A stretch of DNA of 64,000 nt from a virus: the IMG/VR virus record IMGVR_UViG_3300046779_001735, positions 32,001-96,000 of that record; one strand, given 5' to 3'. The position numbers were made by a program, and so were the translations under genes. This document shows, in pieces, positions 28,851 to 47,481 of the stretch (position 1 is the stretch's first letter; every line of letters starts with the position of its first letter). The notes beneath the pieces are model-generated. The model worked only from the letters and a program-made list of their open reading frames with translations, made no database searches and was not told the origin of the DNA.

Positions 28851-28858
28851 ATAATCAA

Positions 28859-29206
28859 ATGACTGAAAAAACCACAAGACCCTGGGGATACTATAGAGTA
28901 TTACACGAAATTAGCAGCGTAGTAAAAGTCAAAGAGCTCACAGTTGATCCATTTAGTAGCTTGTCTATGCAAAGGCACAAAGATCGTGCTGAGATATGGT
29001 TCATAGCCGAAGGAAGAGCCACCCTTTATCGGATAAACAAAAGCACAGACAGTGACTTGGTAGGACACTACGAGCAATTCCAAACTCTTTTTATCTCCAA
29101 AAATTCATGGCATCAGCTCGCAAATGAAACTGATCACCCATTAAAGATAATTGAAATACAATACGGTGATCAATGCGTAGAAGAAGACATAGAAAGACAA
29201 TCTTAA
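28859..29206 (+). CDS. Cupin (mannose-6-phosphate isomerase type II C-terminal-like)
   Basis: RPWGYY, LSMQRH..RAE.W, WHQL.N, IIEIQYG...EEDIER; TAAATA at 28848-28853. Confidence 0.85.
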   Translation: MTEKTTRPWGYYRVLHEISSVVKVKELTVDPFSSLSMQRHKDRAEIWFIAEGRATLYRINKSTDSDLVGHYEQFQTLFISKNSWHQLANETDHPLKIIEIQYGDQCVEEDIERQS

Positions 29207-29212
29207 AATAAA

Positions 29213-31363
29213 ATGCATCAGACTAGCGTGACTGAGCAAAAGTCAGTTGACATGCTTTTGCTCAGTGTGCCTTATTCCGAAATGAGTTATCCTCCGTGTG
29301 GACCTGCTGTGCTTAAAGGCATAGCGCAGTCTCATGGTTTTAATGTTGTCACATGGGATCTTGCAGTTGACTTTGATCAATTTATGGATCAATATCCGCA
29401 TATTGATCGCGTGGAAGTGATGTCAACTTGGGTTACAGCGTTTGATCATACACATCGTCATTTTCACACTATAGAAAAATTTTATCAGTATTGCATTGAA
29501 AAGGTTGTTAAGATTGACTGTAGATACCTTGGTGTGAGTGTATTCAGCGGACATCAGCACAGATTTACTTTTGACTTTTGTCAGCGTTTAAAAAACTTTA
29601 CTTCAAACTATCATGTAGTGTTAGGGGGCAAAGGATGCAGTGTACATCATAATGTTGCAATAAAGAATCTAATTAAGCCAACAGAAAAATATCTTGAGTT
29701 CTATCAAATAATGCAACGTCGTAAATTAGTACATCAGGTGGTAATAGGTGATGCTGAAGATGCCATTGTTGATCTACTTTCTGGCAAATTAGATGCTGAC
29801 GATACTTCTCGAAAGCAGCCATTGGTGCCTGATTTATCATATCCTTTTTCAAATTTTGACGACTACGACTTTGATTTTTATGGCAATGCTGAAATAGGAT
29901 TCAGGCAACTACCTGTAGTAAGCAGTAAAGGGTGTGTGCGTAGTTGTGATTTTTGCGACGTGGGTGCGCATTTTGTTAAGTTTCAAAGTAAAAACGGTGT
30001 ACGGCTAGCCGAAGAAATGATATATTTGCGCAACAGGTATAATGTTTTCAGTTTTGCTTTACAAGATAGTATTGCAAATGGCAACATGAAAAGTCTTAGA
30101 GAGATGTGCAATCATCTTGCTGAATACAATAAAAACAGACCTAAAGATCAACACATACGTTGGGCTGGTAATTGGATAGCTAGGCCAACTAACACTATCA
30201 AGCCTGTTTTTTTTGATTTGTTAGCAGCATCAGGGTGCGAGTCTCTTGTAATTGGTGCTGAGTCAGGCAGCAACCGTGTGCTAGAATTCATGCAAAAAAA
30301 GACCACTGTAGAAGGCTTGTTCTACGAACTTGAACAAATGGATCGCTGTGGCATACAGGTACAAGTCAACACAATTGTAGGCCACTGGAGTGAACTATAC
30401 GAAGATTTTGTTGATAGTGTAGACATGATCCTCAAATTAGCACAGTATCATGCCAAAGGCACCGTCACAGGATTGATTAGTAACTCAGGATTTATGGTAT
30501 TAGAAAACACTCCTGCTAGCCGTTACCCATACAGCGGTATACACAAAGAAACAGGAGACTGGGTAATGCTGTGGTACAGCGACAAAAATCCCAGCTTCAC
30601 AGCTAGAGCTCGTTTTGCTAGGCTATATACCACGTGGAAGATTTACAAATTGTTGCATATTTCTGCGTTTAATGCCAACGAGACTCTTACTCCTGTGATT
30701 GAAGGCATGATTGATTTACGCGACCAATGGGCAGACTTTTATGAACCCTTGTTGCCAGCTGATTACAAAGTGTGCGAACAGTCAGTGGCACTCCTGGATC
30801 AAGTGGATAACTTTTTGCATGATAGATTACAAAAACTTTTTCCAAGCACAGAAGTTACATTTACAGTTGAATCTAACTCGTGTAACGGAGATCCAAGATT
30901 TTTTGTACGGTACAATAACAAAGTGATCTATGAAAACCTGCTGACACACGGCAAACACATTGTGACTTTACATCTAGACTATGATTATGATCGTGAGAAT
31001 CATTTTATAGAATTTGGCATGAATAACAAACAACCAGGTCAAGACACCGAAGTTGATCAAGATGGTAACATCATAGCAGACAAACGCATACTGGTAGAGT
31101 CACTAGTGATTGACGGTATAGATATCTGCGAGAATATTGATCTTTATTATCACCATAGTGAATACAGAGATCAAGGACAACTACAATCAATAGCAGCACC
31201 CGGATTTTACTCTAATGCTAGCATTGGTTGGAAATTTCAAGCACCGTTTTGGCGAAAGGTATTACAACATCGAACAGATGTTTTTTCACACGAATATGGT
31301 GCTAATAGAACCGATAGACTTCTTGAGCAGATGCGGCAAGAAATACAATTGCTAAAGTATTGA
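29213..31363 (+). CDS. Cobalamin-binding radical SAM enzyme (class B methyltransferase-like) with an extra C-terminal domain
   Basis: N-terminal PPCGPAVLK...VVLGG...GDAE; SKGCVRSCDFC; IGAESGS..VL..M.K. Confidence 0.85.
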   Translation: MHQTSVTEQKSVDMLLLSVPYSEMSYPPCGPAVLKGIAQSHGFNVVTWDLAVDFDQFMDQYPHIDRVEVMSTWVTAFDHTHRHFHTIEKFYQYCIEKVVKIDCRYLGVSVFSGHQHRFTFDFCQRLKNFTSNYHVVLGGKGCSVHHNVAIKNLIKPTEKYLEFYQIMQRRKLVHQVVIGDAEDAIVDLLSGKLDADDTSRKQPLVPDLSYPFSNFDDYDFDFYGNAEIGFRQLPVVSSKGCVRSCDFCDVGAHFVKFQSKNGVRLAEEMIYLRNRYNVFSFALQDSIANGNMKSLREMCNHLAEYNKNRPKDQHIRWAGNWIARPTNTIKPVFFDLLAASGCESLVIGAESGSNRVLEFMQKKTTVEGLFYELEQMDRCGIQVQVNTIVGHWSELYEDFVDSVDMILKLAQYHAKGTVTGLISNSGFMVLENTPASRYPYSGIHKETGDWVMLWYSDKNPSFTARARFARLYTTWKIYKLLHISAFNANETLTPVIEGMIDLRDQWADFYEPLLPADYKVCEQSVALLDQVDNFLHDRLQKLFPSTEVTFTVESNSCNGDPRFFVRYNNKVIYENLLTHGKHIVTLHLDYDYDRENHFIEFGMNNKQPGQDTEVDQDGNIIADKRILVESLVIDGIDICENIDLYYHHSEYRDQGQLQSIAAPGFYSNASIGWKFQAPFWRKVLQHRTDVFSHEYGANRTDRLLEQMRQEIQLLKY

Positions 31364-31388
31364 CAAATTGTAGCATTGATGTTACAAT
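31360..31388 (+). promoter_or_regulatory. sigma70-type promoter
   Basis: TTGACA-17-TACAAT. Confidence 0.75.
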
Positions 31389-31409
31389 CATTATCACAGG
31401 AGAATATAC

Positions 31410-31754
31410 ATGATAGAAGGTAAAGTCTGGGGACAGACAGAACTATTAGAAGCCACCGGAGTCTTGGAGTTTCATAGGATTAAAATCAAAAAAGGCGGAG
31501 TGTGTTCTAAGCACAAACACAAGCACAAATGGAATGGATTCTTTGTAGAGCAAGGCGCCCTGCTGATACGTGTGTGGAAAAACAACTATGATCTAGTTGA
31601 TGAAACAGTGCTTATGGATGGAATGTACACCAAGGTATCACCAGGTGAGTATCATCAGTTTGAAGCACTAGAAGATACAATTGCGTTTGAACTTTACTGG
31701 GCAGAGTTTGATCATGATGATATTGAACGCGAAACTGTGGGATTTACCAAATGA
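31410..31754 (+). CDS. Cupin-domain protein
   Basis: KVWG, CSKHKH..KWNGF.V..G, PGEYHQF. Confidence 0.8.
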   Translation: MIEGKVWGQTELLEATGVLEFHRIKIKKGGVCSKHKHKHKWNGFFVEQGALLIRVWKNNYDLVDETVLMDGMYTKVSPGEYHQFEALEDTIAFELYWAEFDHDDIERETVGFTK

Positions 31755-32578
31755 AGAAAATTTTAGTTACTGGTTGTTCAGGTTATATTGGCGGACACCT
31801 GGTACAACTGCTGAAAAAAATCACTGACCATGAGATACATGGCATTGATCGCCGTGCACCAGAACATGTGGCTCCGCACCAGTTCCTCCCATTAGACATA
31901 CGACATCTGCGCAATGATTTAATGCCAGAATTTGATTGTGTAATACATCTGGCAGGATCAGTAAACGTAGGTGCTAGTGTGCATGATCCTTGGAAATATT
32001 ATGAAACCAATATTGTAGGTACTCGTAACGTGTTGGATTTACGTAGTAAAAATTTTGTGCTTGCTAGTACAGGAGCAGCCGCAGGGCTTGGCAGTCCCTA
32101 TGGTATTAGCAAGCGTGCAGCAGAAGACATAGTCACACAAGTGTGTAGAGAACGCGAACGCAGTTATACAATATTTAGATTTTATAATGTAATTGGGTCC
32201 GATGGCGTTCCACCTACCAATCCTGATGGGCTCATGATGAACTTGATCAAGGCTCGTGAAACCGGCGAGTTTCAGCTCAACGGCGTTGATTATAATACAC
32301 GGGATGGCACATGTTTGCGAGACTATGTACATGTGAATGAAATCTGTCATGCATTGATTAAAGCCATTGATCAGCCAGCTAATGGTCTAGAGAATCTTGG
32401 GCATGGTGCAGGTATCACTGTGCAGGAAATGATAGACATGTTCAAACGTGTAAACAACTGCGATTTTCAAGTGCGTGTGGGACAGCGTCGTAGTGGTGAT
32501 CTTGAAGCCAGTGTACTAGATAATCCCAGCGATTATTTGCCCAGACTTTACAATCTAGAAGATTTGCTTAAGATCTAA
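31751..32578 (+). CDS. galE: NAD-dependent epimerase (UDP-glucose 4-epimerase-like)
   Basis: TGCSGYIG, YGISK, RFYNV, DGTCLRDYVHV, RRSGD. Confidence 0.85.
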   Translation: MKKILVTGCSGYIGGHLVQLLKKITDHEIHGIDRRAPEHVAPHQFLPLDIRHLRNDLMPEFDCVIHLAGSVNVGASVHDPWKYYETNIVGTRNVLDLRSKNFVLASTGAAAGLGSPYGISKRAAEDIVTQVCRERERSYTIFRFYNVIGSDGVPPTNPDGLMMNLIKARETGEFQLNGVDYNTRDGTCLRDYVHVNEICHALIKAIDQPANGLENLGHGAGITVQEMIDMFKRVNNCDFQVRVGQRRSGDLEASVLDNPSDYLPRLYNLEDLLKI

Positions 32579-32597
32579 ATTCTGCGCCGATACGACT

Positions 32598-32605
32598 TAT
32601 AAATA
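32598..32605 (+). promoter_or_regulatory. T4 late promoter consensus TATAAATA
   Basis: Exact TATAAATA, 8 nt before ATG 32614; no SD. Confidence 0.7.
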
Positions 32606-32613
32606 TCGGCGTT

Positions 32614-33300
32614 ATGAAATCCATTCCTATTTTTATCGGGTTCGATCCCCGTGAAGCAGTGGCATATCATGTGTGCTCAAACAGCATCATACGTCACTCC
32701 AAACATCCAGTATCAATTACCCCTTTGGCATTGAACAATCTTGGTGATTACACCGAGACTCATGCCGACGGTAGCAATCAATTTATCTACAGTAGATTTC
32801 TTGCACCTTTTCTATCTGATTATCAAGGATGGGCGTTGTTTATTGATGGTGACATGCTGCTCCGAGCTGATATTCAAGAACTCTGGAATCTGTGCGACCA
32901 ATCCAAGGCAGTCATGGTGGTCAAACACGATTATCAAACTCGCATGACCGAAAAGTATCTAGGCAGTAAAAATGAAAATTATCCAAGAAAAAACTGGAGC
33001 AGCGTGATATTATGGAACTGTGCACACCCAAAAAATCTTGTGCTCACCCCTCGTTGGATCCAGAATGCCACAGGGGCTCAATTACACAGATTTACCTGGC
33101 TAGATGACAGTGATATAGGCGAGCTACCACGAGAATGGAATTGGCTGCCAGATGAATACGGGGCCAATCCTGATGCTAAGTTATTGCACTACACGTTGGG
33201 CACACCATGCTTTCATGATTTCGCTCTGACTCCCATGGCAGATGAGTGGCATCGTGAGCGAATCTACACAGATTACAGCACCCAGCGAGGTCTAGATTAA
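32614..33300 (+). CDS. GT-A fold glycosyltransferase (GT8-like)
   Basis: IFIGFDPRE, FIYSRFL, FIDGDML, YPRKNWSS, EWNWL, LHYTLGTP. Confidence 0.8.
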   Translation: MKSIPIFIGFDPREAVAYHVCSNSIIRHSKHPVSITPLALNNLGDYTETHADGSNQFIYSRFLAPFLSDYQGWALFIDGDMLLRADIQELWNLCDQSKAVMVVKHDYQTRMTEKYLGSKNENYPRKNWSSVILWNCAHPKNLVLTPRWIQNATGAQLHRFTWLDDSDIGELPREWNWLPDEYGANPDAKLLHYTLGTPCFHDFALTPMADEWHRERIYTDYSTQRGLD

Positions 33301-33301
33301 T

Positions 33302-34948
33302 ATGTGGAAAGTGTACATTGGATGGGATCCGGCACAACAAGAAGCAGCAGAAGTTTGTAGATACACACTGTTAAAACACAGCACTATTCCTTTGCAGGTT
33401 AGTTTTTTAAGATTAAAAGATCTTCAAGAGCAAAAAATAATTTGGGCAAAAGATTTAGAAGCTACCACAGAAACCACACTCTCTAGATTTCTTGTGCCGC
33501 ACCTAAGCCAATATCAGGGCTGGAGTTTGTATGTTGATCCTGACTATGTGTTTATGGGTGATGTAAGAGAACTGTTTCAAAGCATGGAGTCTAGATATGC
33601 TTGTTCAGTAGTAAAGGTACAGTACAAACCTCAACAAGAAACCAAACTAGACGGACGAACACAGGTCACATATCCAAGAAAGTGCTGGAGTAGTTTGATT
33701 TTATATAATAATTCACATGGAAAAATCAAGAGCCTTACTCCAGAATTTGTGAACCAATCCAAGCCAAGTTTCCTACATAGATTTGACTGGATAGCAGGCA
33801 ACGAACTTGGTGGATTAAATCTTGAATGGCAAGTGATTCCTGGGTACGCAGATGCCAGCATAGAAACATCCAAGATTAAAGCTCTACATTTTACCGCCGG
33901 CGGCCCTTGGCACCCACAAGCACGCAGTGTTGAATATGGGTGGTATTATAGTGAAGCACTTAATCAATTCAAACAGAGTCAGCAACTGCAACCTCCTCCC
34001 AAGTTGTTTGATGCATTGCCTCAATCAGTAACAGATGTATTCAACAAAATCATAAACTACAGACATGACCCTGCAGGTCATTATTATAAAGATTCAAGTT
34101 ACGAGCAAATAATCAAGGACTTAGCTATGTTAGACAACAAAGCCTGCGTAGCAGTTGAAGCCGATACTGAAGATGAAGCCAGCGACAAGCTAGAAGCCAA
34201 AGGACAAAACTATGATCCATTTCTAAAAAGTTTTATCATTGGATCTGGTGGACAAATTTCAGTATGGGATAAAACTAGCGAAAGCAAGGCGCCAGTGGTA
34301 GTACGAGGTGTGACCAAGCGCAAACAAATGGATGCTTGTAGAAAATCCGGACGAGATTTTTACTATATTGACACAGGGTATTTTGGTAATGGCAGAAAGA
34401 AAACCTATCACCGTGTTACCAAAAATAACATGCAGTATCTTGGAGAAGTCAAGCATCGGCCTAGAGATAGACTGTCAGCAACTGGTTGGCAAGTACGTAA
34501 ATTTCGGCCAGGAGCAAATATATTATTGGCACCACCAAGTCAAAAATTGCTGATGTGCTATGACATTGATCTAGATAAATGGCTAGAAGAAACAGTTGCA
34601 CAAATGAAGTTGTTTACTGACCGTGAGATAATCATTAGAAACAAAGCCAGTCGCAGTGTAAGACAAAGTACTGATACTATGGAAATGGCTCTAGAGAGAA
34701 ATGTTCATTGTTTAGTGACATTTAGTTCTATAGCTGCAATAGAAGCCATCTGTCTGGGCAAGCCAGCGATAGTGCTTGGTCCCAGTGCCGCAGCCCCAGT
34801 GTGTAGTCGGGCAGTCAAAGACATTGAAAATCCTTTCATTCCCACACTTGATGAAGTAGAGGAATGGTTAGCACATCTAGCTTACTGTCAATTCACAGAG
34901 GCTGAGATGCGCGACGGTACGGCCTGGCGGATTCTCAATGACAATTGA
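33302..34948 (+). CDS. Fusion: GT8-like glycosyltransferase plus KpsS/KpsC-like (capsule-synthesis) domain
   Basis: N-half paralogous to 32614 (YIGWD, SRFLVP, YPRKCWSS, HFTAGGPW); C-half YIDTGYFG...VTFSSIAAIEA...W..HLAYCQF. Confidence 0.7.
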   Translation: MWKVYIGWDPAQQEAAEVCRYTLLKHSTIPLQVSFLRLKDLQEQKIIWAKDLEATTETTLSRFLVPHLSQYQGWSLYVDPDYVFMGDVRELFQSMESRYACSVVKVQYKPQQETKLDGRTQVTYPRKCWSSLILYNNSHGKIKSLTPEFVNQSKPSFLHRFDWIAGNELGGLNLEWQVIPGYADASIETSKIKALHFTAGGPWHPQARSVEYGWYYSEALNQFKQSQQLQPPPKLFDALPQSVTDVFNKIINYRHDPAGHYYKDSSYEQIIKDLAMLDNKACVAVEADTEDEASDKLEAKGQNYDPFLKSFIIGSGGQISVWDKTSESKAPVVVRGVTKRKQMDACRKSGRDFYYIDTGYFGNGRKKTYHRVTKNNMQYLGEVKHRPRDRLSATGWQVRKFRPGANILLAPPSQKLLMCYDIDLDKWLEETVAQMKLFTDREIIIRNKASRSVRQSTDTMEMALERNVHCLVTFSSIAAIEAICLGKPAIVLGPSAAAPVCSRAVKDIENPFIPTLDEVEEWLAHLAYCQFTEAEMRDGTAWRILNDN

Positions 34949-35837
34949 TGTTGTAGTTTATTTCAGTAGTCTGCAAAAACAAACACCCAGTCGCAAGATT
35001 GATGTGTTGCAGGCCTTTGCTGACGGCGCTCGAAGTCAAGGTGCATCAGTGGTGATAGAGAAAAGCTACAATATCAAACCGGCTAGGTTGGCTGTGATAT
35101 TGGGTTGGCCTAGTCCATTGCAAGATGGACCCAACATACGTCTTAGACATGCTGTGGTAAAAGAACAAAAAAGAACAAATAATCATGTCATGGCCATTGA
35201 TGCGAGTACATTTAAGTTTCATGACAGCACCGGCAAGTACCTACGCTATAGCTTAAATGGCGTGTTTTATGACACAGCAGAATACGCTAACCGTAATAGT
35301 GATGCTGCAAGATGGCTTACTATTAGTAAAGACCTAGGTCTACAACTTCAACCCTGGCGTTCAGGTGGTAATTATGTGCTGCTATTGATGCAGCGTGATG
35401 GCGGCTGGAGTATGAAAGGCCTTAATCCTATAGAATGGACACGCAACAAAATAGCCGATCTACGTCGCGTGACAGATTTACCTATCCTAGTAAGACCCCA
35501 TCCTGGTAAAAAAATTGATTTATCCGACCTTGCGAATCTCAATGTCATGATCAGTCCCAGCAAAATCAGATCATTAAATGATGACCTAGCTGATGCACAA
35601 TCAGCCTGCGTGTTTAATTCCAGTTCAGGAGTAGCATCTATTCTAGCAGGAGTTCCTTTGTTAGTTGATGATCGCAGCTCGGTTTGCTGGGACGTTTCTC
35701 ATCATGGCCTAGACGAACTAGCAGAGCCACGTTGGTTCCCTAGAGAACAGTGGATTTATGACCTAGCTGCATGCCACTGGAGCGACGAAGAAAGCCGTCG
35801 CGGGCTTGTATTCAACAAATTTTTGCCCTTCCTATAA
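34938..35837 (+). CDS. KpsS/KpsC-like capsule-synthesis-domain glycosyltransferase
   Basis: LMQRDG, VRPHP, FNSSSGVASILAGVP. Confidence 0.6.
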   Translation: MTIDVVVYFSSLQKQTPSRKIDVLQAFADGARSQGASVVIEKSYNIKPARLAVILGWPSPLQDGPNIRLRHAVVKEQKRTNNHVMAIDASTFKFHDSTGKYLRYSLNGVFYDTAEYANRNSDAARWLTISKDLGLQLQPWRSGGNYVLLLMQRDGGWSMKGLNPIEWTRNKIADLRRVTDLPILVRPHPGKKIDLSDLANLNVMISPSKIRSLNDDLADAQSACVFNSSSGVASILAGVPLLVDDRSSVCWDVSHHGLDELAEPRWFPREQWIYDLAACHWSDEESRRGLVFNKFLPFL

Positions 35838-35840
35838 ATA
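35833..35840 (+). promoter_or_regulatory. T4 late promoter consensus TATAAATA
   Basis: Exact TATAAATA overlapping a stop codon. Confidence 0.65.
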
Positions 35841-35892
35841 CCCTTGGGACGCAAGATCCCTATAACAATAATAATAAAAGGGAAAATGAGAA

Positions 35893-36675
35893 GTGGATCC
35901 ACTCACACTATTTGCACTGGCAAATGGTGCTGTCAAGCTTGTAAAAGAAGGATGTAAACTTTACAAGGACATCAAGGGAGCAGCCGGCGACATCAAGGAT
36001 GTTCTGCAGGATCTTGACGACCAATTCAATAAAAAATACAAAGATCACCCACCTACAGTAGCTGAACGTAATCAGTATGTTCAAGAAAAAAATCGCATCA
36101 TTGAACTCAACAAAAAAGATGGCGAAACTGTCAACATCTATCAAGAAATTGGCGATCAACTAGGCGCATACTTTGACAACTATTACAAGTGCATGGCGAT
36201 CTTTGAAGAGGAAGAACGTCGAGCTCATACCGAAGTATATGTAGGTGAAGACAGCATAGGTAAACGTGCTTTAAAACGTGTGCTGATGAAAAAGCAACTC
36301 ATACAAATGCAAGCCGAGCTTCGTGAAATTATGGTGTATCAAAGTCCTCCTGAACTAGGAGCACTTTATACAGAAGTAGAAGAAATGATGAAAGAGATGG
36401 GCAAAGAACAGGTAGTGTTAATTGCCGAGAAGATGCAAAAAGAAAGAGCAGCACTGATTGCCCGACGCCGTAGAATCAATCGTATACGATGCGATGCATG
36501 GAAATGGGGATTAACTTTGTTATTTGCAGGGTATATTGTTTGGTTGGCCTGGGCAGTGGTTCAAATACGTATTGAAGCGCGGCCTGAACTAGGAAGGTGT
36601 CTATTGCCCAAAGGCACTTTGTTTTATGAAAAATATAATAACCTTAAATGGATTGATTGCGAAATAAATGATTGA
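35893..36675 (+). CDS. Coiled-coil protein with one C-proximal transmembrane helix
   Basis: 260 aa; hydrophobic WGLTLLFAGYIVWLAWAVV segment. Confidence 0.65.
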   Translation: MDPLTLFALANGAVKLVKEGCKLYKDIKGAAGDIKDVLQDLDDQFNKKYKDHPPTVAERNQYVQEKNRIIELNKKDGETVNIYQEIGDQLGAYFDNYYKCMAIFEEEERRAHTEVYVGEDSIGKRALKRVLMKKQLIQMQAELREIMVYQSPPELGALYTEVEEMMKEMGKEQVVLIAEKMQKERAALIARRRRINRIRCDAWKWGLTLLFAGYIVWLAWAVVQIRIEARPELGRCLLPKGTLFYEKYNNLKWIDCEIND

Positions 36676-36865
36676 CGAACCAATAAAACCAAAAAAAGCC
36701 AAAAAAAAACTTGCTGTACCACCGGAGTTTCTTGAAAGTGCCAAGAGTTACGATGATAAACTCGTATTGGTCAAATACCTAGCAGAAAAAGAAAAAGGTC
36801 GATTTATGCTGTTGGTAAAAAAAATGTTGGAACCTGAACCTCCAAAAAAGCCTCCTAGGTCTTAG
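36668..36865 (+). CDS. Small basic hypothetical protein
   Basis: 65 aa ORF overlapping the upstream stop. Confidence 0.45.
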   Translation: MIDEPIKPKKAKKKLAVPPEFLESAKSYDDKLVLVKYLAEKEKGRFMLLVKKMLEPEPPKKPPRS

Positions 36866-38362: not shown

Positions 38363-39381
38363 AAAAAATCTCCTATGGTATCACTGTCTCGTGGTATGTT
38401 CACGGCTATGGCTCGTGGATAAGGATTGGCTGTGTTGTAATCGTTAATTAATATACGTTTGACATTCTTCAATCCAGTGATCAAAGTAAAATCTTTAAAC
38501 CCTAATGAGTCAAGCATAGCGTGGATTTCGTCATATCGCTCTGTGGGTCTTGCTGTGGTAAACACAAGCTGTGAACCTTGTGCAACCATGTCTTGTACTA
38601 GTTTGATATTTTTAACTAGCGGCACAGGTGGCTCACCAAATTCTTCTCTAGCCTGCGCATGTACAACAGTTCCATCAATATCACAAAAAATCACAGCCAG
38701 GTCATTGTAAGCGTGCCATTCTTCAGCAGTGCCAACATCAACATATTGGTCAACAAGCTGTGCAGAAAACACATGATCTTGTGCTAAACAATGTTTTATA
38801 ACATGGCTAACAAACACTTCGCCGCTGTGATGGCTCAGCTCATCATAGGCTTGAACAAATGTTGCAGCACTGCTAAATTTGTATCCACCCACACAAAACA
38901 ATTCACTTATAACTTGTTTTTCCGCAATGTCAGTAACGATATCATGTGTGTTGACACGTACAAAACTCTTGCTGGCCAGCCGTTTCAAAACTTCATGTTG
39001 AGCAATGTTGCTGACACATACGTAGTTGCCAGGTGGATTGTCATGGGAAAAGAAGCTATCACAGTCTTTGATTAGTATTTCACTGCCTAGATCAATGTTG
39101 GCTTGTGTAATTATTTCACGTACTGTGTGCGCCGGACCGGTTGTGATTTGTTCTAGGATTACAGGATTGACGTGATCGCTGTATTTTTCTTTGAGGTATC
39201 GCAGCACTGGATAGGATTCAACATGTTGTTTGAGTACGCCAATTGTAACACGATGTTGTCCTACGTATTGCTCAATAGCACGTTCAATCATCATTGCACC
39301 ACTGTGATCAGTCAGGGTGTATTTTGGTCTCATGCCCGGAAAGCGAGTGCTCAACCCAGCAGCTGGTACTATTATTTCCAT
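38359..39381 (-). CDS. Sugar nucleotidyltransferase-like domain fused to a HAD phosphatase
   Basis: IVPAAGLSTRF...PK, TTGPAHT, KDCD, DVGT; then FCDIDGT, FTTAR, LIND. Confidence 0.8.
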   Translation of the reverse strand: MEIIVPAAGLSTRFPGMRPKYTLTDHSGAMMIERAIEQYVGQHRVTIGVLKQHVESYPVLRYLKEKYSDHVNPVILEQITTGPAHTVREIITQANIDLGSEILIKDCDSFFSHDNPPGNYVCVSNIAQHEVLKRLASKSFVRVNTHDIVTDIAEKQVISELFCVGGYKFSSAATFVQAYDELSHHSGEVFVSHVIKHCLAQDHVFSAQLVDQYVDVGTAEEWHAYNDLAVIFCDIDGTVVHAQAREEFGEPPVPLVKNIKLVQDMVAQGSQLVFTTARPTERYDEIHAMLDSLGFKDFTLITGLKNVKRILINDYNTANPYPRAIAVNIPRDSDTIGDFL

Positions 39382-40124
39382 AAATTTTCAATTGCCTCTA
39401 CAATAAATTTTTGTTCTTCGCTGGCAGCATCACAGTAACGATAAACACGCAACAGCATTAAAGTTAGTAAAATAGAATTGTTAGCATCAGGCCATTGAGA
39501 CAGTAAGCCTTGCTCTAGATATTGTAATTTTTGATCAAGATCCGCTGGATTGTTTCTCAAAAACCAACCGCACTTGATGTCTTGTCTAAGTTTGCAAATA
39601 TCAAAGATATAACTATCCCAGATACCACTCTGTGCATCAATAAGATAAAAACCTTTAGTGGGGTGCCACAGTATGTTTTCAAGTGTTAGGTCGCCGTGAT
39701 AAGGACTCTTGGGTAATTTAGTGGGTATAGATTGTAAAATTTCCGCAGCGGCGAATGGCATACTATCAAGATCAATTATATCTAAAAAGTCCTCTGCTGT
39801 GGATTGATAGTTAACGGTTTCAATACACATAGTGAATTTTGTCAGCACTGACTTTAAAAAAATCAACAACGGTTCAGGATCATTATCAAGCAAATATGTA
39901 CGCATGTCAATGCCATCAACGTATTCCATGTCTATGGTATCATCAAACACATGGTATATTTCTGGCATTGGTACTGACGGAATTTGTTTTGATAATACAG
40001 TGTACCTGTCAAGATTCCTGGCAATGTTACCTTGTTTGCGTACAAACAAACGGCCGTGTTTGGTCATCAAGAAAATCTTGCTGCCACTGTGTCCGTGAAA
40101 CTGCTGTACGATACGTGCTGCCAT
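39372..40124 (-). CDS. APH/choline-kinase-like phosphotransferase
   Basis: GHSGS, HGDLTLENIL, LID, DICKLRQD. Confidence 0.8.
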   Translation of the reverse strand: MAARIVQQFHGHSGSKIFLMTKHGRLFVRKQGNIARNLDRYTVLSKQIPSVPMPEIYHVFDDTIDMEYVDGIDMRTYLLDNDPEPLLIFLKSVLTKFTMCIETVNYQSTAEDFLDIIDLDSMPFAAAEILQSIPTKLPKSPYHGDLTLENILWHPTKGFYLIDAQSGIWDSYIFDICKLRQDIKCGWFLRNNPADLDQKLQYLEQGLLSQWPDANNSILLTLMLLRVYRYCDAASEEQKFIVEAIENLWK

Positions 40125-40672
40125 TATTTTGTTGCCACCACTCTTGAGTCAATGCTACTTTTACCGTATTGGTTGGGTTGTATTTCTGTGCGAGAAAACC
40201 CTGCTTCTTGAAACATACGACACATGGCTTCAGCACTGTATCCCCATTTGTGTAACATTGTGGGATCAGGATAACGTGCTGAATCTCCGTAGATACCAGA
40301 TATTGTACGTTTGGTTAGACGCTTGTCAGTGGTCCAAAAGCAATCAGGATACTTGATTACTTCCTGGCACATTTTCAGCAGATCCGGCCACTCCATGGCA
40401 ACAGATCCTCCAGGGCGACATATTCTATAAAATTCACGGAACATAGGCATCACATATTGACGGCTGAGATGTTCTACTACATGCACAGTCAGTATTTCAT
40501 CTACTGTGTTGTCTGCCAGTGCAAATGGCTTGGTGATATCTTGTATTACAACGTCCGGATCATGCTGCATGTACTCACCATCTACGTTGATCCATCCTGC
40601 TAGTTTTACAGTGCCACAGCCAAGGTGCAAGCGCACGGGTCCAACACAGTTTTTTACAGTTTGTTCAAGCAT
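40124..40672 (-). CDS. Class I SAM-dependent methyltransferase
   Basis: LHLGCG, HVVEHL, RICRPGG. Confidence 0.85.
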   Translation of the reverse strand: MLEQTVKNCVGPVRLHLGCGTVKLAGWINVDGEYMQHDPDVVIQDITKPFALADNTVDEILTVHVVEHLSRQYVMPMFREFYRICRPGGSVAMEWPDLLKMCQEVIKYPDCFWTTDKRLTKRTISGIYGDSARYPDPTMLHKWGYSAEAMCRMFQEAGFSRTEIQPNQYGKSSIDSRVVATK

Positions 40673-41276
40673 CTTTTTTAGTTCCTAACATCATAACCAA
40701 TAGGTAAGGCAAATATTTTTTTTGACTGCCATCATCATTAATATGTATCAAAGTCCATTTACTATCGCGTCCTATCTCGCCGCGGCTGACCCAGCGTATA
40801 TCTCCACCTTGTTCTCCGGCATAAGCAAAATTGTCCCAAGTAAAGTCAGGATACAACGTTTCAACGCCACGATGACTAAATCTAAAATAGTCGTCAGGAT
40901 AAGCATGATAACGCCAGGACCAAGGCACACTGATAAACAACTGTCCGCCTGGTTTGACTACTTCTGTGATTTTTTCTGCCATGATCCAGGGTTTTGTAAC
41001 ATGTTCCATGACACTGCAACATAGCACCAAATCAAATGTGTTTTTTGGCAGTGGATTTTCATCTGCGGTTAAATCGCAAACATAGTCAACGTCTGGTCCT
41101 TCTTCAAGGTCAGTGCCAAAATACTCAACTGTGTCAGTGTGTTGGCAATTGTCACAGGGTTCAGTAAAAAACTTTCTGAATCCAGTGGTGTTGAATCTTG
41201 CTCCAACTTCTAAGATTGACCCATTGATTTTACCCACGGTTTTCTTTATATACAACAAATCATTTGGACTACCCAC
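40665..41276 (-). CDS. Class I SAM-dependent methyltransferase
   Basis: LEVGA, SVMEHV, KPGG, HAYPDDYFRF. Confidence 0.85.
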   Translation of the reverse strand: MGSPNDLLYIKKTVGKINGSILEVGARFNTTGFRKFFTEPCDNCQHTDTVEYFGTDLEEGPDVDYVCDLTADENPLPKNTFDLVLCCSVMEHVTKPWIMAEKITEVVKPGGQLFISVPWSWRYHAYPDDYFRFSHRGVETLYPDFTWDNFAYAGEQGGDIRWVSRGEIGRDSKWTLIHINDDGSQKKYLPYLLVMMLGTKKDA

Positions 41277-42210
41277 GTACTACTCCTAGCCATTGTTTTG
41301 CTATTGCTTGCGGACTATAATTATCAATAGTGTATTGTTGTCCGGATTGAATCTTTTGCAGAGTCTTACCAGGGTGTTCTTTTGCCCAGCGAATGCCTTG
41401 CATTGCATCCTGTTGCCAAGTCCAAGCATCAAACTCTAAATAACTGGCCAAGGGCGTTGTTATTACAAATCTACCACTCATCAAGCCATCAATTAATCGA
41501 TTGGCACTTTTAGTATCAGTTCTATAATTAGTATGTACCACCGGAATCAACACAATGTCTGTGTCTACTAGCAGTTGTCCTTGTAAATCCCAATTCCACT
41601 CTTGAAAATGCAGTCTATTAAAGTTCACGCCTGAAAAAACACCACGTTGTTGACGCTCCTGCATTTTGTGTTTGATACGATCAGCTTTGGCAGTGACCAT
41701 AGTGAATTGATAGTTTTTGATTTGTAATTCCAGTTGCTGCCAAAGTTCTACCCAAGGCACAAATTTTAAACTTGCACTGCTACCAAACCATAGCAAGTTA
41801 ATGTCGTTACCTGGAGCAAACTTTGGTTCTAACAGCGGGCGTTCAGCGGGATCGGGAATCACTGTGCTGTCACGTCCAGTGGTTTGACGAACACTTATTC
41901 CCATTTGTTCGCTATTGACTGTGATAGCATCGGCGGCAGCACAGCAAGGTTCGTATTCTTGTTTTTCATCAAACTTGTTGTCACATAGATCATAGATGGT
42001 ATGTGCACCAAGGCGCTTGGCTTCAAGGATGTCTGTGGGCTGCGAGTTTTTTAAGAATACAACAGTGGTGTCCGCATCAACTCCCTCAAGACTACGACCA
42101 CATGTGGCGTTGTATCCCATGCTAGCCAATGTGTTGGCCATAAGCTCACCACGCAGTCTATGGCTAGCACGTTTGTTCTTAAATCTACTGCTGAAAAATA
42201 CAATCTTCAT
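41269..42210 (-). CDS. GT-B fold glycosyltransferase (GT4-like)
   Basis: ASHRLR, IYDLCD, WFG, KSANRL...G..VI. Confidence 0.65.
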   Translation of the reverse strand: MKIVFFSSRFKNKRASHRLRGELMANTLASMGYNATCGRSLEGVDADTTVVFLKNSQPTDILEAKRLGAHTIYDLCDNKFDEKQEYEPCCAAADAITVNSEQMGISVRQTTGRDSTVIPDPAERPLLEPKFAPGNDINLLWFGSSASLKFVPWVELWQQLELQIKNYQFTMVTAKADRIKHKMQERQQRGVFSGVNFNRLHFQEWNWDLQGQLLVDTDIVLIPVVHTNYRTDTKSANRLIDGLMSGRFVITTPLASYLEFDAWTWQQDAMQGIRWAKEHPGKTLQKIQSGQQYTIDNYSPQAIAKQWLGVVRG

Positions 42211-42863
42211 TTAACGTTCCATCCCATAATCCAGTCATCTTTGACTTGATCTAGACGTACCATGCCCCATTCTTGTAGTAATCCAATAGCCGCATGTTGT
42301 TTGTATTGATCACTGTAGGCATCGTGCGGCTTTTGTTCTACAACCACAACAGGACGACATCTTAGAATAGTTTCTTTGGCGCCTTGTATAATACGATACT
42401 CAAACCCTTCGCAGTCCATCTTGATGTAATCAATGTTTTCATAGTTGTAATCGTCAAGTCTGCGTACCTCGGTATCACCGTTGCCAAAACTAGCAGGATC
42501 AATATGAGTATGACCCATGTTGTCCATGGTGATGTTCATGCGAGCAGTTGTGGCTTGATCGCCCAGCGCAATGGATTCAACTTGTAACTTGTTGCTGTTG
42601 ACATTTTTAGTCAAACAGTCACGAAATATCTCTACAGGTTCAAACGCAATTACTGATTGAAATCGTTCACATAGATCACGACTCCATAGCCCAACGTTGG
42701 CACCAATGTCCAAGGCCACTCTGAAATTTTTAACATACGTCAAACTGCGATCTCGCACTTGGTATTGATAACGTGCAGGGCCACCTTTGGCCACGCTTTT
42801 GTCTAGCATTTTTTGAAAATGTGTTTCACCTTCGGGAAACCACCAACCTCTGTGTTCTTTCAT
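42207..42863 (-). CDS. FkbM-family methyltransferase
   Basis: LDIGANVG, AFEP, IKMDCEGFE. Confidence 0.9.
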   Translation of the reverse strand: MKEHRGWWFPEGETHFQKMLDKSVAKGGPARYQYQVRDRSLTYVKNFRVALDIGANVGLWSRDLCERFQSVIAFEPVEIFRDCLTKNVNSNKLQVESIALGDQATTARMNITMDNMGHTHIDPASFGNGDTEVRRLDDYNYENIDYIKMDCEGFEYRIIQGAKETILRCRPVVVVEQKPHDAYSDQYKQHAAIGLLQEWGMVRLDQVKDDWIMGWNVK

Positions 42864-43663
42864 CTAGGCCACTCTTGTCTTATAATTGCTTCAGCAGTGC
42901 CATTGCCTAGTTCATTATTATGAAACTGTCCATAGGCAAGATGCCGACACCACTGTTGTACTAAATCCTCGTCTGGAAACCAAGGATCGTCAATTTTGGT
43001 AAAGTCTTTGTTGCTAACTGGCAGAGCAGCACTAACTGGCGCCCTTACAAATACTGGAACACCGGCCAGCACTGCTTCCACAGCAGCATTACTGTTATAG
43101 GTCACCACGGCGTGAACATCCGATAGCGCGGCACTGAAATCATTTACCAAACGTTTTTGCCGATTGGGATCACGTTGTCTAACTTCAATAGGTCGATCCG
43201 TGTGTGTTTTAATTGCACTGATAGTATCAGTTAGCCACTGTTCAAGTTCAATTCCGTATACCTGACAGGGTTTTACATCAGGTGCAGCTATTAATATTTT
43301 CTTGCCAGTTTTTTGGCGAGGATTTGGTTTTATGTTTAACCGTTCCCATCGGTCGCTTGGACGTTCAATTATTTCACTGTGTTGTATGTTGTCCGGGACC
43401 ACACGATGCCAGACTTTCCAGCCATGTGGATTCAGTGGATTGGGACGATTGCCAAAATAACCAGTGTCCATGTAAAGAAATGGTCTGGCATCTGTCCAGC
43501 AGCGTTTGTATATCTTGTGTTTAAGTATGCCGCGTAGAACCAACGGGTCTTGGTTACTATCGTAATTCCAACTTTCCAGCACAGTGGGAGCTTGTCTTGC
43601 GCCCTGGGCAAACAAATTGATATACTCGTCTACTCCACCTTTGCTAAGAAATATCCATTTCAT
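42860..43663 (-). CDS. KpsS/KpsC-like capsule-synthesis-domain glycosyltransferase
   Basis: YMDTGYFG, TDRPIEVR, VTYNSNAAVEAVLAGVP, HLAYGQF; paralog of the C-half of 33302; ATGA overlap places the start at 43663. Confidence 0.6.
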   Translation of the reverse strand: MKWIFLSKGGVDEYINLFAQGARQAPTVLESWNYDSNQDPLVLRGILKHKIYKRCWTDARPFLYMDTGYFGNRPNPLNPHGWKVWHRVVPDNIQHSEIIERPSDRWERLNIKPNPRQKTGKKILIAAPDVKPCQVYGIELEQWLTDTISAIKTHTDRPIEVRQRDPNRQKRLVNDFSAALSDVHAVVTYNSNAAVEAVLAGVPVFVRAPVSAALPVSNKDFTKIDDPWFPDEDLVQQWCRHLAYGQFHNNELGNGTAEAIIRQEWPR

Positions 43664-44505
43664 CGCAGATTCTGCCAATATGCTTCTGTTCGTTGAACTT
43701 TGATATCATGCTGTAGACTATGTCCGGCTTGCTTGCGATTGTCACCTTTGAGATGATCAAGATATGCACCCCATTCTGAGTTGATCAAGGGATGCCCTTC
43801 GCCTGGCGAATTAGCAGGACTACGACGTAGATCTCCCAGCCTTTCGCTCCAGTTCAATTCACGAAGCCCATCAATACGCTGGCGCACAGCATCAAACACA
43901 AAACTATCATGCCACTCGCCTAGAGTAAAAATTCCATTTTCAGCATCATTATACATGCGTTGGAATTCTTTTATGAATCTAGTGGTACCTTTGGTACCAA
44001 TCTGCATGGCATACAATCCGCATTCGCTAAACTTCCCAGGACGCCCAAGAAAACAAATATCTTTGTCTTCTGGGCACATTGTGTCTAAGAAAGTTTCATT
44101 TAACGAACTATGGCATACCATGTCAGCATCCATCCACAGTACCCATTGACTCTGAGCGTGCTTCACTGCATGAAACACCGCATAGACTTTGTGTGCAAAG
44201 CGCACAGCATCCCACTTGAATGATTTAGCATGATCTTTGCGTTGACCTCGTACAGGATCACCTGAGATATCTCCAGTGGCCTTGGGCACTGAACTCCAAC
44301 GATCTTTGAATGCCACTAAATCTGGGCAGGTTGATTCAAGATCCAGGATTTCTAGATTAGGTGCACGTTGTATGACCTCACAACGCTCCGCATACACCCG
44401 TAAACCTGTGCTCGAAGGCCAGGTAGCCAACCAGGTATCAATCATTCGATTGGCGTATAAGTTATATCCAGCTTGGTGGAAAGTGGTAATTACTTGATAT
44501 TTCAC
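43660..44505 (-). CDS. GT-A fold glycosyltransferase
   Basis: RFAHKV, WMDAD (DxD), SECG, EWHDS, HLKG; likely GTG start at 44505, 5 nt after a minus-strand TAAATA (44511-44516). Confidence 0.7.
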   Translation of the reverse strand: MKYQVITTFHQAGYNLYANRMIDTWLATWPSSTGLRVYAERCEVIQRAPNLEILDLESTCPDLVAFKDRWSSVPKATGDISGDPVRGQRKDHAKSFKWDAVRFAHKVYAVFHAVKHAQSQWVLWMDADMVCHSSLNETFLDTMCPEDKDICFLGRPGKFSECGLYAMQIGTKGTTRFIKEFQRMYNDAENGIFTLGEWHDSFVFDAVRQRIDGLRELNWSERLGDLRRSPANSPGEGHPLINSEWGAYLDHLKGDNRKQAGHSLQHDIKVQRTEAYWQNLR

Positions 44506-44516
44506 AAGGATATTTA

Positions 44517-45362
44517 GTGATACGTACTCTTGCCTATTTTCAAAATCTCTGCGCTTTGAACAGTCGCGAGCCGTTGGCCGCTTTTCTACAGGGCGCACAA
44601 TCACATGGGATTCAGCCCTTGCCGGATAGCATGGATGCAGATGCGGCTGTGATATGGTCAGTCTTATGGTCTGGTCGTATGCGCGGTAACCGAGAAGTAT
44701 TTCAACATTATAGATCGCAGCTGAAACCTGTGATAGTGATAGATGTTGGTGCTCTGGTTAGAAACGTCACATGGAAGGTAGCGGTTAATCATGTAACTGC
44801 GCAGGGCGCCTACGGGCATACTCATACGCTTGATTTTGATAGACCAAAAAAACTTGGTATTGCACAACACAATGTTCAACCTGGATCACCTGCTGTTTTA
44901 ATATGCAGTCAGCATGCTCAAAGTCTGCAGATGCAAAACTTTGCCAAGATTGAAGACTGGGTAAATCTTGCTGTGGCTCGTGTCAAACAACACACTGATC
45001 GACCCGTGATTATCAGGCCACATCCAAGGAGTTTACTGCGTATGAATTTCCTCACGCCCGGAATTGATATACAAGATCCACATAAACTGCCAAACACCTA
45101 TGATAGTTTTGATCTTAGATTTAACTATCATGCTATTGTTAATCATAATTCTGGCCCCGGCATTCAAGCAGCAATTAGGGGATGCAGGCCTGTGGTTGAC
45201 AGCACAAGCCTAGCCTATCCAGTGAGTGTGCAACCGGAACAACTTGAGCAGCCCTATACAGTTGATCGTGATCAATGGCTGGTAGAAATCTGTCACACTG
45301 AATACACAGTGCCTGAACTACAAGCAGGAACCTGGGTAACTAGACTAGCTGAATTTTTATGA
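44517..45362 (+). CDS. KpsS/KpsC-like capsule-synthesis-domain glycosyltransferase
   Basis: TDRPVIIRPHP, NHNSGPGIQAAIRG. Confidence 0.6.
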   Translation: MIRTLAYFQNLCALNSREPLAAFLQGAQSHGIQPLPDSMDADAAVIWSVLWSGRMRGNREVFQHYRSQLKPVIVIDVGALVRNVTWKVAVNHVTAQGAYGHTHTLDFDRPKKLGIAQHNVQPGSPAVLICSQHAQSLQMQNFAKIEDWVNLAVARVKQHTDRPVIIRPHPRSLLRMNFLTPGIDIQDPHKLPNTYDSFDLRFNYHAIVNHNSGPGIQAAIRGCRPVVDSTSLAYPVSVQPEQLEQPYTVDRDQWLVEICHTEYTVPELQAGTWVTRLAEFL

Positions 45363-46252
45363 CCGACAAACATGCAAAAAGACTAAGACGAGCAGTAGAG
45401 TATGAACTCCGACAACAGGATCAACAAAGAGAAGCTCGTGCGTTGCTCAAAGCACAAAAACGTTTGCAAAAAATACATGCACACAAAGAAAAAACACCAA
45501 CCCCGGCATTAGAGGAGCCCACACCAGCACCATTGATTGGTCCTCTACATGTGGCCTGCTTGATTCATGGGCAAGCCTATGACTGGATGTATGTAGAGCG
45601 ACTTTACAATTCTGTGCGTAGAAACACCACATACGAGATTGTGTTTCATGTGTTTACAGAATACTCACGTGAAGTGCCATCACACATGATTAAACACAAT
45701 TTGGTTGAATGGGCCGATGTACATGGCCCACGAAAGAGTTGGTGGTACAAAATGCAGATCTATAATCCAGCTCATCACAGCGGCCCATTGTTGTATTTTG
45801 ACCTAGACACAGTTATATTGAAAAATATTGACTGGATCGCTAAACTGCCCATACGATATTTTTGGGCTAGTAAGGATTTTAGGCATCTTTGGCGTCCAAA
45901 TCACAGAGGCATTAATAGTAGTGTGATGTGGTGGGACACGCAGCGATTTGATTGGATGTATCAAGAATTTGAAAAACGCAACATCTATCATCTCATGAAA
46001 CAATATCAAGGTGATCAAGACTATGCCAGCGAGCTGCTTACAGACCGAGATCTTCGCTATTTTCCGCCAAACTACACAGCCAGTTGGCGCTGGCAGTGTC
46101 TAGATGGTGGCATGGATTTTAGGACAAAAAAATACCGAGCGCCCAACACAGGCACACAGGTTGATCCCCAGACATCTATATTGATATTTCACGGATCACC
46201 CAAGCCCCATGAGCTATTGCATGATAGAGTGGTCAAGAACTTCTGGCAGTGA
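45359..46252 (+). CDS. GT8-like glycosyltransferase with a charged N-terminal extension
   Basis: YVERLYNSV, WWYKM, YFDLD, NSSVM, GDQDY, IFHGSPKPH. Confidence 0.75.
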   Translation: MTDKHAKRLRRAVEYELRQQDQQREARALLKAQKRLQKIHAHKEKTPTPALEEPTPAPLIGPLHVACLIHGQAYDWMYVERLYNSVRRNTTYEIVFHVFTEYSREVPSHMIKHNLVEWADVHGPRKSWWYKMQIYNPAHHSGPLLYFDLDTVILKNIDWIAKLPIRYFWASKDFRHLWRPNHRGINSSVMWWDTQRFDWMYQEFEKRNIYHLMKQYQGDQDYASELLTDRDLRYFPPNYTASWRWQCLDGGMDFRTKKYRAPNTGTQVDPQTSILIFHGSPKPHELLHDRVVKNFWQ

Positions 46253-46275
46253 TAAATATACTAGATATTTCAAAT

Positions 46276-47452: not shown

Positions 47453-47481
47453 TTGACCAATAATACCCAATTCGCTATAAT
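47453..47481 (+). promoter_or_regulatory. sigma70-type early promoter
   Basis: TTGACC-17-TATAAT. Confidence 0.8.

Follow-up and report, generated by a model that had tools for sequence, protein, structure and literature searches.

A dense glycan-assembly island with KpsC-like proteins in an uncultured freshwater jumbo phage

The present analysis concerns a window of 64,000 nucleotides, corresponding to bases 32001-96000 of a 156,620-bp IMG/VR virus record (IMGVR_UViG_3300046779_001735; estimated completeness 45%), and within it the region 28859-46252. This region very probably constitutes a dense phage-encoded glycan-assembly island under late-type control. Eleven glycosyltransferase (GT)-type domains were counted in it, together with sugar-nucleotide enzymes and methyltransferases, and this gene content supports the phage-encoded island claimed by an original prediction made on the same DNA. 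The family scans recovered, at the expected coordinates, the nine or so GT-type domains, the two weaker candidates and the other enzymes that it had listed. The best explanation of the island is a methylated glycan made late in infection with virion proteins as candidate acceptor, a reading that we propose tentatively, as the leading candidate and not as an established function.

The window is a fragment of an uncultured freshwater jumbo phage of the Rak2/Atu_ph07 type, its UvsX being 64-69% identical to those of the jumbo myophages Phosso, Atu_ph07, CBB, GAP32 and XbC2. Elsewhere it carries a tail sheath gene (5678-8932), a homologue of a virion structural protein (22344-23753) and genes for gp32, UvsW and an AAA ATPase. 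No match to the island was obtained by megablast against 50,697 phage records, and its KpsC-like genes were not found in the cultured Rak2-like relatives picked via UvsX. For comparison, IMG/VR was scanned and at least 579 candidate loci encoding a relative were obtained, of which 80 were kept and 13 long ones were mapped. The island is organised in three blocks that are convergent at about 36860 and divergent at 44505/44517, which confirms the arrangement first described. The first plus-strand block (28859-36865) encodes a cupin, a B12-type radical S-adenosylmethionine (SAM) enzyme, a WbuC-like cupin, a GalE-like short-chain dehydrogenase/reductase, a GT8 enzyme, a fusion of a GT8 and a KpsC-like module, another KpsC-like protein, a coiled-coil protein and a small basic open reading frame (ORF). 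The minus-strand block (44505-36855) encodes a GT2 enzyme, a KpsC-like protein, an FkbM methyltransferase, a candidate GT-B enzyme, two SAM methyltransferases, an APH-type kinase, a nucleotidyltransferase-HAD protein and two paralogous candidate transferases (famC). The second plus-strand block (44517-47401) encodes a KpsC-like protein, a GT8-like enzyme and two further paralogues (famD). Paralogue sets were defined by all-against-all BLAST.

The four KpsC-like paralogues (famB) are the C-terminal half of the fusion protein 33302-34948 (+) and the products of 34938-35837 (+), 42860-43678 (−) and 44517-45362 (+), the last two being core genes in the sense given below. An AlphaFold2 (AF2) model of the 42860-43678 protein was built from 25 input sequences with a mean predicted local distance difference test (pLDDT) of 92. 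When this model was searched against the PDB with Foldseek, ranks 1 to 12 were all KpsC, WbbB or KrkA, with E values down to 1.3e-6. VIA-align gave Z scores of 11.8 for KpsC (232 residues aligned, root-mean-square deviation 4.9), 11.0 for WbbB and 9.8 for KrkA, the alignments spanning 218-238 of the 272 residues, and the generic GT-B folds reached at most 8.8. In agreement with the fold, hhalign comparison of famB with eight bacterial proteins bearing PF05159 (Capsule_synth) gave a probability of 95% and an E value of 4e-8, for the C-terminal domain only. At E 0.01, hmmscan did not match famB to PF05159 and returned only DUF6716, under its cut-off; the best PDB sequence match of the famB profile was WbbB, but at E 0.16. 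The GT assignments originally made in the island thus gained a supported fold for the whole famB set, and those of the GT8 enzyme 32614-33300 and of the GT2 enzyme were over their cut-offs.

In the KpsC/KpsS (GT107), WbbB (GT99) and KrkA group, the His of the HP motif protonates the cytidine monophosphate (CMP) leaving group and the Asp of the QxxxD motif is the nucleophile (PMC10148158). famB resembles this group in its fold over the whole length and in the profile homology of its C-terminal domain, and two of its four subfamilies retain the RPHP and NSxxxxEAxxxGxP motifs. In the 34938 and 44517 subfamilies RPHP reaches a conservation of at least 95%, whereas in those of 42860 and of the 33302 C-terminal half the His is replaced by Arg or Lys (R-x-R or R-x-K). 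In the QxxxD region, which is out of register, the 34938 subfamily reads MQRDGG (Asp at +2; conserved together with RPHPG), the 44517 subfamily has a Gln without an acid and the 42860 subfamily reads P-D-E-K; the profile alignment to WbbB sets D134 on the nucleophile, at E 0.16 and in an uncertain register. Further differences from the bacterial group are an identity of about 10-14%, the lack of a Pfam PF05159 match, the viral origin and the absence of KpsMTED. KpsC has two modules and the famB genes are likewise paired: they look like two pairs, each made of one HP and one non-HP member, and this pairing recurs in the phages Mosig and CcrSC. On the basis of the model, famB is a distinct family within the KpsC/WbbB fold group, with a putative Kdo (2-keto-3-deoxyoctonate) transferase role; it is classed in this way, and not as an established Kdo transferase, because the fold matches but the defining residues are partly kept. 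Kdo-type transfer by famB is plausible, and we lean slightly towards it. The family comprises at least 4839 clusters at 50% identity (E 0.001 or better), and some of its members are fused to GT1, GT8 or DUF268 domains.

The pointer to CMP-β-Kdo as putative donor of famB is only circumstantial, namely the presence of kdsA beside or inside the island. In the window, this Kdo-8-phosphate synthase gene lies 4 kb downstream of the island, beyond the range first delimited (50101-50955, +; NF003543, 380.7 bits for an equivalog cut-off of 242; TIGR01362, 351 for 314, likewise an equivalog). It is present in four related loci; in two of them, L036 (18959-19696) and L064 (14464-15201), it stands inside the island, next to the cupin gene, and not downstream of uvsW. 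Judged from gene position, the two separate sites that it occupies, within or next to the island, represent an independent placement that ties kdsA to the island. The other Kdo and nonulosonic acid pathway genes sought, KdsB, the SIS isomerase (KdsD) and NeuB, were not found, so that the host would have to supply donor activation. kdsA was also considered as a clue to the host and set aside: its nearest cellular homologues, 45-55% identical, are scattered over many phyla and thus give no host signal.

The late-type control of the island was deduced from the TAAATA motif, of which 21 of the 54 copies fall in intergenic DNA, which makes up 4.3% of the record, an enrichment of about ninefold. The full T4 late octamer TATAAATA is at chance level (2 found for 2.05 expected) and was for this reason dropped in favour of the shorter and enriched TAAATA core. 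This core stands upstream of the tail sheath gene and of the virion structural protein homologue, and 5-8 nt upstream of three starts of the island, each at the head of a gene block. The box at 28848-28853 (+) is 5 nt from the ATG of the cupin gene, revised to 28859 from a long ORF beginning at 28790; that at 32600-32605 (+), inside TATAAATA 32598-32605, is 8 nt from the ATG of the GT8 gene at 32614; and that at 44511-44516 (−) is 5 nt from the start of the GT2 gene, revised to a GTG at 44505. Of 76 relatives, 38 retain the GT2 box, TAAGTA being among the variants listed in the others. The GT8 box is peculiar to the window phage and not conserved (1 of 41), the GT8 gene directly following the cupin gene in the relatives. 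The proposal that the GT operons start at late-type boxes therefore stood for the boxes themselves, at 32600 and 44516 (−), and for the enrichment of the motif, but neither for the octamer nor for the conservation of the 32600 box. In several places, TAAATA lies 5-8 nt before a start that has no Shine-Dalgarno sequence (window positions 20757, 22331, 28848, 32600, 44516 (−) and 63111; record positions 100444 and 117322), which suggests that this phage repeatedly makes late transcripts with almost no leader.

A sigma70 promoter had also been proposed for the second cupin and galE genes, and a sigma70-like site (TTGACA-17-TACAAT; 11 of 12 positions) is indeed present in the gap upstream of the second cupin gene, at 31360-31388 (+); the count of such sites over the region is not above chance. 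The temporal scheme built on it, in which donors would be made early and the glycan late, depends on this single site in front of two rare accessory genes (each in fewer than 5 of 80 relatives), and a TAAATA box precedes the first donor-type gene itself, that of the cupin. The AAA ATPase gene (47513) is preceded by TTGACC-17-TATAAT at 47453-47481, found in the 14 of 14 related loci listed (45 have the gene). To judge by its sequence, this is a clear early-type promoter, contrasting with the TAAATA boxes of the island.

The position of the island is constant, since in the 13 mapped long loci it is bordered by the uvsX, 28140 and 28398 genes on one side and by the AAA ATPase gene on the other, with uvsX and uvsW as flanks. 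Its core follows the order cupin, GT8, famB, famB; FkbM, famB, GT2; famB, GT8-like enzyme, the individual core genes being present in 37 to 80 of the 80 loci. A variable cassette, placed between the genes for FkbM and for the 34938-type famB, ranges from 6 bp to 7.5 kb across 46 loci and draws on at least 22 gene families, among which SAM methyltransferases are the commonest and GT25, radical SAM and cytidylyltransferase-like genes also occur. The cassette of the window phage (35838-42206) has a G+C content of 0.40, for about 0.44 in the whole window. The space separating the GT8-like gene from the AAA ATPase gene forms a second, smaller variable site. A core with a hypervariable cassette recalls the layout of serotype regions in capsule loci and suggests that an exposed glycan is under diversifying selection. 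The core is also found in cultured phages. Products gp183-191 of the Pelagibacter phage Mosig include two FkbM-type methyltransferases, a GT2, a GT8 (50% identical to that of the window), a famB, a sulfotransferase, a second famB and a GT8-like enzyme. In this copy (L083; Mosig 124832-130666) the sulfotransferase gene sits between the two KpsC-like genes, which suggests sulfated glycan variants. In the Caulobacter phage CcrSC, gp170-173 comprise two famB, a GT8 and an FkbM, and their genes are placed directly 3' of tail fibre and tail protein genes and upstream of a lysozyme gene.

Three GT8-like domains accompany the famB proteins. The core enzyme 32614-33300 (+) matches PF01501 with 27.3 bits (cut-off 24.3) and phrog_28018 at 3e-40, and is the one that is 50% identical to Mosig gp188. 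The N-terminal half of the fusion 33302-34948, whose two halves are separate genes in most relatives, is its 35%-identical paralogue and also matches phrog_28018. The core protein 45359-46252 (+), a GT-A enzyme and homologue of Mosig gp183 with a charged Pro-rich N-terminal tail, is called GT8-like on indirect grounds, by its invariant DLD and by its neighbours in the Atlas, which are named as GT8; its best PDB match is the GT8 enzyme 6mw5, at a weak E of 0.19. The core GT2 enzyme (43660-44505, −) matches PF00535 with 34.3 bits (cut-off 23.3), scored on the ORF 43660-44604. The candidate GT-B protein 41269-42210 (−), encoded in 16 of 80 loci, had been predicted as GT4-like; the gene is there, but the support is weak, with 13.1 bits for PF13524 (cut-off 25) and Glyco_trans_1_2 in 3 of 14 homologues at a best E of 0.0014. 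Two of its JGI homologues are named as cell-wall glycosyltransferases.

The famC proteins 36855-37544 (−) and 37520-38362 (−) belong to the variable cassette. The AF2 model of the latter (pLDDT 86) has a GT-A or nucleotidyltransferase fold, with Mimivirus R655, KdsB and PBCV-1 A64R among the first Foldseek matches and a WavE lead in the Atlas. VIA-align gave tied Z scores of 10-11 to many GT-A enzymes and to enzymes of the GlmU/IspD type. The famC proteins stay candidate transferases, since their fold cannot separate a glycosyltransferase from a sugar-phosphate nucleotidyltransferase. Pfam, PHROGs and NCBIfam gave nothing useful for the famC pair, 41269, 45359, 35893 and both famD genes, and searches of the PDB with single protein sequences gave chance matches only.

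The tailoring enzymes are of several kinds. The cassette encodes a sugar-phosphate nucleotidyltransferase fused to a HAD phosphatase (38359-39381, −; phrog_3980, weak HAD matches, PDB 4evw at E 0.03, motifs AAGLSTRF and DIDGT), an APH-type small-molecule or sugar kinase (39372-40124, −; PF01636 over cut-off) and two class I SAM methyltransferases (40124-40672 and 40665-41276, both −; PF08241 over cut-off in each). Next to it lies the gene of the core FkbM-family methyltransferase (42207-42863, −; PF05050 at 5e-18, TIGR01444 over cut-off), present in 79 of 80 loci. At the other end of the island, the core cupin (28859-29206, +; 37 of 80 loci) resembles the isomerase domain of type II phosphomannose isomerases (PF01050 at 4.8e-22; C-terminal part of TIGR01479). 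The B12-type (class B) radical SAM methyltransferase-like enzyme (29213-31363, +) is a rare accessory found in 3 of 80 loci, with PF04055 over cut-off, the B12-binding domain under cut-off and matches to NCBIfam radical SAM methyltransferase families. The WbuC-like small cupin (31410-31754, +) matches PF07883 and, under cut-off, TIGR04366 (4.6e-7). The GalE-like nucleoside diphosphate (NDP)-sugar epimerase/dehydratase of the short-chain type (31751-32578, +) matches PF01370 at 6.6e-35 and TIGR01179 with 148 bits, under the equivalog cut-off, and has a homologue in none of the 80 loci. As had been anticipated from the soluble look of the enzymes, hydropathy predicted no membrane helix in any of them. 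The single exception in the island is a non-enzyme ORF, 35893-36675 (+), a 260-aa coiled-coil protein with one C-terminal helix, present in 1 of 80 loci and having a very weak match (17.5 bits) to the KpsE/BexC family.

Two other groups of genes deserve mention. The famD paralogues (46276-47401, +), downstream of a TAAATA box at 46253, are acidic, Thr/Asn-rich and of beta type; they occur in six relatives at the same second variable site, mostly together with a large tailoring cassette, and could be lectins, carriers or decoration proteins. They were considered as the glycan acceptor and kept as a lead only, being present in only these six relatives and tied to the cassette by raw counts that ignore kinship (both present in 4 loci, one of them in 5 and neither in 36). 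Just upstream of uvsX, 25619-26263 encodes a 2-oxoglutarate oxygenase of the protein-hydroxylating Asp/Asn beta-hydroxylase family, found in 1 of 80 relatives.

Taken as a whole, the island could be an assembly line for a methylated oligosaccharide or short polysaccharide, probably containing Kdo or a related ulosonic acid, working at the cytoplasmic side late in infection. The KpsC-like modules would add β-linked Kdo-type residues from host-made CMP-Kdo, the supply of which would be topped up by kdsA in the window phage, and the GT8 and GT2 enzymes would add hexoses. The kinase, the nucleotidyltransferase-HAD fusion and the extra transferases of the cassette may provide a strain-specific activated sugar, and the methyltransferases would cap or decorate the chain. 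The leading candidate for the acceptor is a phage-made one, in the form of exposed virion proteins (capsid, fibres, tail), and the particle would then bear a variable glycan coat. Such coats have precedents in giant viruses and in some mycobacteriophages. Gene clusters for glycans in giant viruses include predicted Kdo pathways (PMC9614988). Besides these precedents, the late timing, the lack of export genes, the tail-gene neighbourhood in CcrSC and the hypervariable cassette speak for a virion acceptor. Upstream of the window, at record positions 7281-30729, lies a run of fibre-like proteins, one of 2814 aa, with repeats of the GN(I/V)(S/T)GGN(I/V)TTTG type, which, being exposed and rich in Ser/Thr, are candidates for glycosylation. 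When the 156-kb record was scanned for Ser/Thr-rich acceptors, only these repeat proteins were returned, which is not diagnostic.

Several observations weigh against this assignment. Neither an acceptor protein nor a protein-initiating transferase was recognised. Wherever a relative of the KpsC-like modules has been solved, it acts on a lipid-linked glycan and not on a protein. The core moves between phages with unrelated virion proteins, so that a universal acceptor (lipid, lipopolysaccharide (LPS) core or DNA) would fit at least as well. An Asp at Q+4 is found in none of the four famB subfamilies and, because QxxxD is not in register and two subfamilies are without HP, donor and chemistry could differ. 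The phage is without KdsB, KdsC and KdsD, and kdsA was not found in a 95%-complete relative nor in most of the others. Finally, the plus-strand block starting at 44517 has no TAAATA box. As for the argument originally drawn from soluble enzymes to a phage substrate, virion proteins stay the leading candidate but the step itself does not follow, because KpsC, WbbB, KrkA and the GT8 enzymes of the LPS core are also devoid of membrane helices and nevertheless act on lipid-linked acceptors exported by host machinery.

Remodelling of the host envelope is the strongest alternative, although we hold it to be rather unlikely. Peripheral enzymes would alter lipid-linked intermediates of the host (lipid A-core, undecaprenyl-linked O-antigen or a phosphatidylglycerol-Kdo primer) and MsbA/Lpt or ABC exporters would bring the glycan to the surface, with changed receptors, a block of superinfection or a smaller loss of progeny on infected cells and debris as a result. 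The nearest families of the island proteins are all LPS or capsule enzymes (KpsC/WbbB/KrkA, GT8, the GT25 of relatives, the WavE lead, kdsA), which likewise have no membrane helices, the kinase, nucleotidyltransferase and HAD trio is heptose-pathway-like, and a universal lipid acceptor would suit a core that is portable among phages whose hosts differ widely. For pelagimyophages, GT8-rich clusters were read in the same manner, without experiment (PMC7029224). This reading would however depend wholly on the host, because neither an exporter nor a flippase nor an initiating enzyme is among the phage genes. Searches of five related records, of which one is 95% complete, gave no ABC_tran over cut-off, ABC2_membrane, Bac_transf (PF02397), Glycos_transf_4 (PF00953) or Wzx (PF01943), the window's own phage being incomplete; the absence of Wzx, ABC exporter and membrane-bound initiating transferase noticed at the outset is thereby borne out. 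In addition, late-type promoters leave little time for surface turnover, and in CcrSC the module is embedded in a tail and lysis block. We know of no experimental support for such a role in any lytic phage, which also counts against it.

A soluble cytoplasmic product, that is a free polymethylated oligosaccharide or a glycosylated small molecule altering the physiology of the host, is improbable. Mycobacterial polymethylated polysaccharides and glycosylated natural products would be the comparison, and the lack of membrane helices in all enzymes, the abundance of methyltransferases, the class B radical SAM enzyme and the kinase (both typical of natural-product tailoring) and the natural-product glycosyltransferases, which are the next structural neighbours among the generic GT-B folds, are compatible with it. 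Against these stand the absence of any visible scaffold-forming gene (polyketide synthase, nonribosomal peptide synthetase or aglycone synthesis), the restriction of the radical SAM gene to 3 of 80 loci, the best fold matches, which are polysaccharide enzymes, and a usefulness late in infection that nothing known explains.

Least probable of all is a glycan built by the transferases on a modified base of the phage DNA against restriction, in the way in which phage enzymes place Kdo, heptose or arabinose on hydroxylated cytosines. There is a real precedent for it, phage GTs reported to install Kdo on 5-hydroxymethylcytosine and a set of HAD/APH, cytidylyltransferase and GT-B enzymes reported to install heptose (bioRxiv 10.1101/2023.12.21.572611). 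The heptose set resembles the cassette 38359-42210, the island is placed, between uvsX and uvsW, in the replication/recombination module, and DNA is an acceptor common to all phages carrying the module, but this reading is disfavoured because the enzyme making the hydroxyl handle was not found and the transferases are too many. In the same five records, including the 95%-complete relative and with the window phage itself only 45% complete, there was no ThyA-family hydroxymethylase or 5-hydroxycytosine (5hoC) synthase (ThyA homologue, PF00303), C5-methylase (PF00145) or TET/JBP protein (PF12851), the last negative being weak because the control search matched in no genome; no known DNA glycan comes near to five to eleven transferases and three to five methyltransferases, and no T4 β-glucosyltransferase was among the Foldseek and VIA matches listed for the modelled KpsC-like protein. 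The DNA glycan clusters described (bioRxiv 10.1101/2023.12.21.572611; PMC13326640) share with the island GTs using Kdo, heptose or arabinose and the set of HAD, APH-type kinase and cytidylyltransferase, but they have a ThyA homologue or a methylase with a TET enzyme for the handle, and far fewer GTs.

Coming back to the late-made glycan with virion proteins as candidate acceptor, the island can be set beside other systems. In the group 2 ABC-transporter-dependent capsule system, KpsMT and KpsED stand beside KpsS/KpsC, whereas here none was found and the sole trace is the faint KpsE-family match of one rare ORF. The Wzx/Wzy and synthase-dependent pathways have an initiating phosphoglycosyl transferase and a flippase, neither of which was found in the five records. 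The gene clusters of giant viruses (clade-specific in Mimivirus; 38 kb in CroV, with a predicted Kdo pathway, GTs and sugar methyltransferases; PBCV-1 A064R; PMC9614988) are likewise virus-encoded, exporter-free, lineage-variable and Kdo-linked, and it is from these viruses that the famC neighbours R655 and A64R come. The island differs from them by belonging to a bacterial virus, by having only kdsA of the Kdo pathway, by its KpsC-like modules, which are not described there, and by being known here from genes alone. The LPS-like or GT8-rich clusters of pelagimyophages and T4-like cyanophages are also from aquatic myophages, dominated by GT8 and located in hyperplastic regions, and Mosig carries the same core; they were interpreted as modifying the host O-chain, their KpsC-like genes being left as hypothetical proteins (PMC7029224). 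Compared with these, the present island is larger, lies between uvsX and uvsW and belongs to a jumbo lineage.

This analysis gives a fold and a probable chemistry, Kdo-type transfer, to a very abundant phage family annotated as hypothetical, and delimits a core module that is portable and carries a hypervariable cassette. Glycan synthesis encoded by the virus is well documented in giant viruses and a few mycobacteriophages, and for aquatic phages it has been a matter of guesswork. With marked reserve, we suggest that pairs of HP and non-HP famB proteins, with GT8 and FkbM enzymes, may let many aquatic phages coat their virions with a methylated Kdo-containing glycan, which a swap-in cassette would vary from strain to strain; judged by gene content, the carriers of this module would be freshwater jumbo phages, pelagimyophages and giant siphophages of Caulobacter. 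Since the module is present in cultured and workable phages (the Caulobacter CcrSC type and Pelagibacter phage Mosig), the question of the acceptor can be tested at the bench. If the reading is true, it would provide a bacterial-virus counterpart of the glycan coats of giant viruses and the first viral β-Kdo transferases, with famB as a large and previously unnamed family. If the virion is the target, variable sugar coats may be present on phages in lake and ocean water, with a bearing on adsorption, grazing, aggregation and defence.

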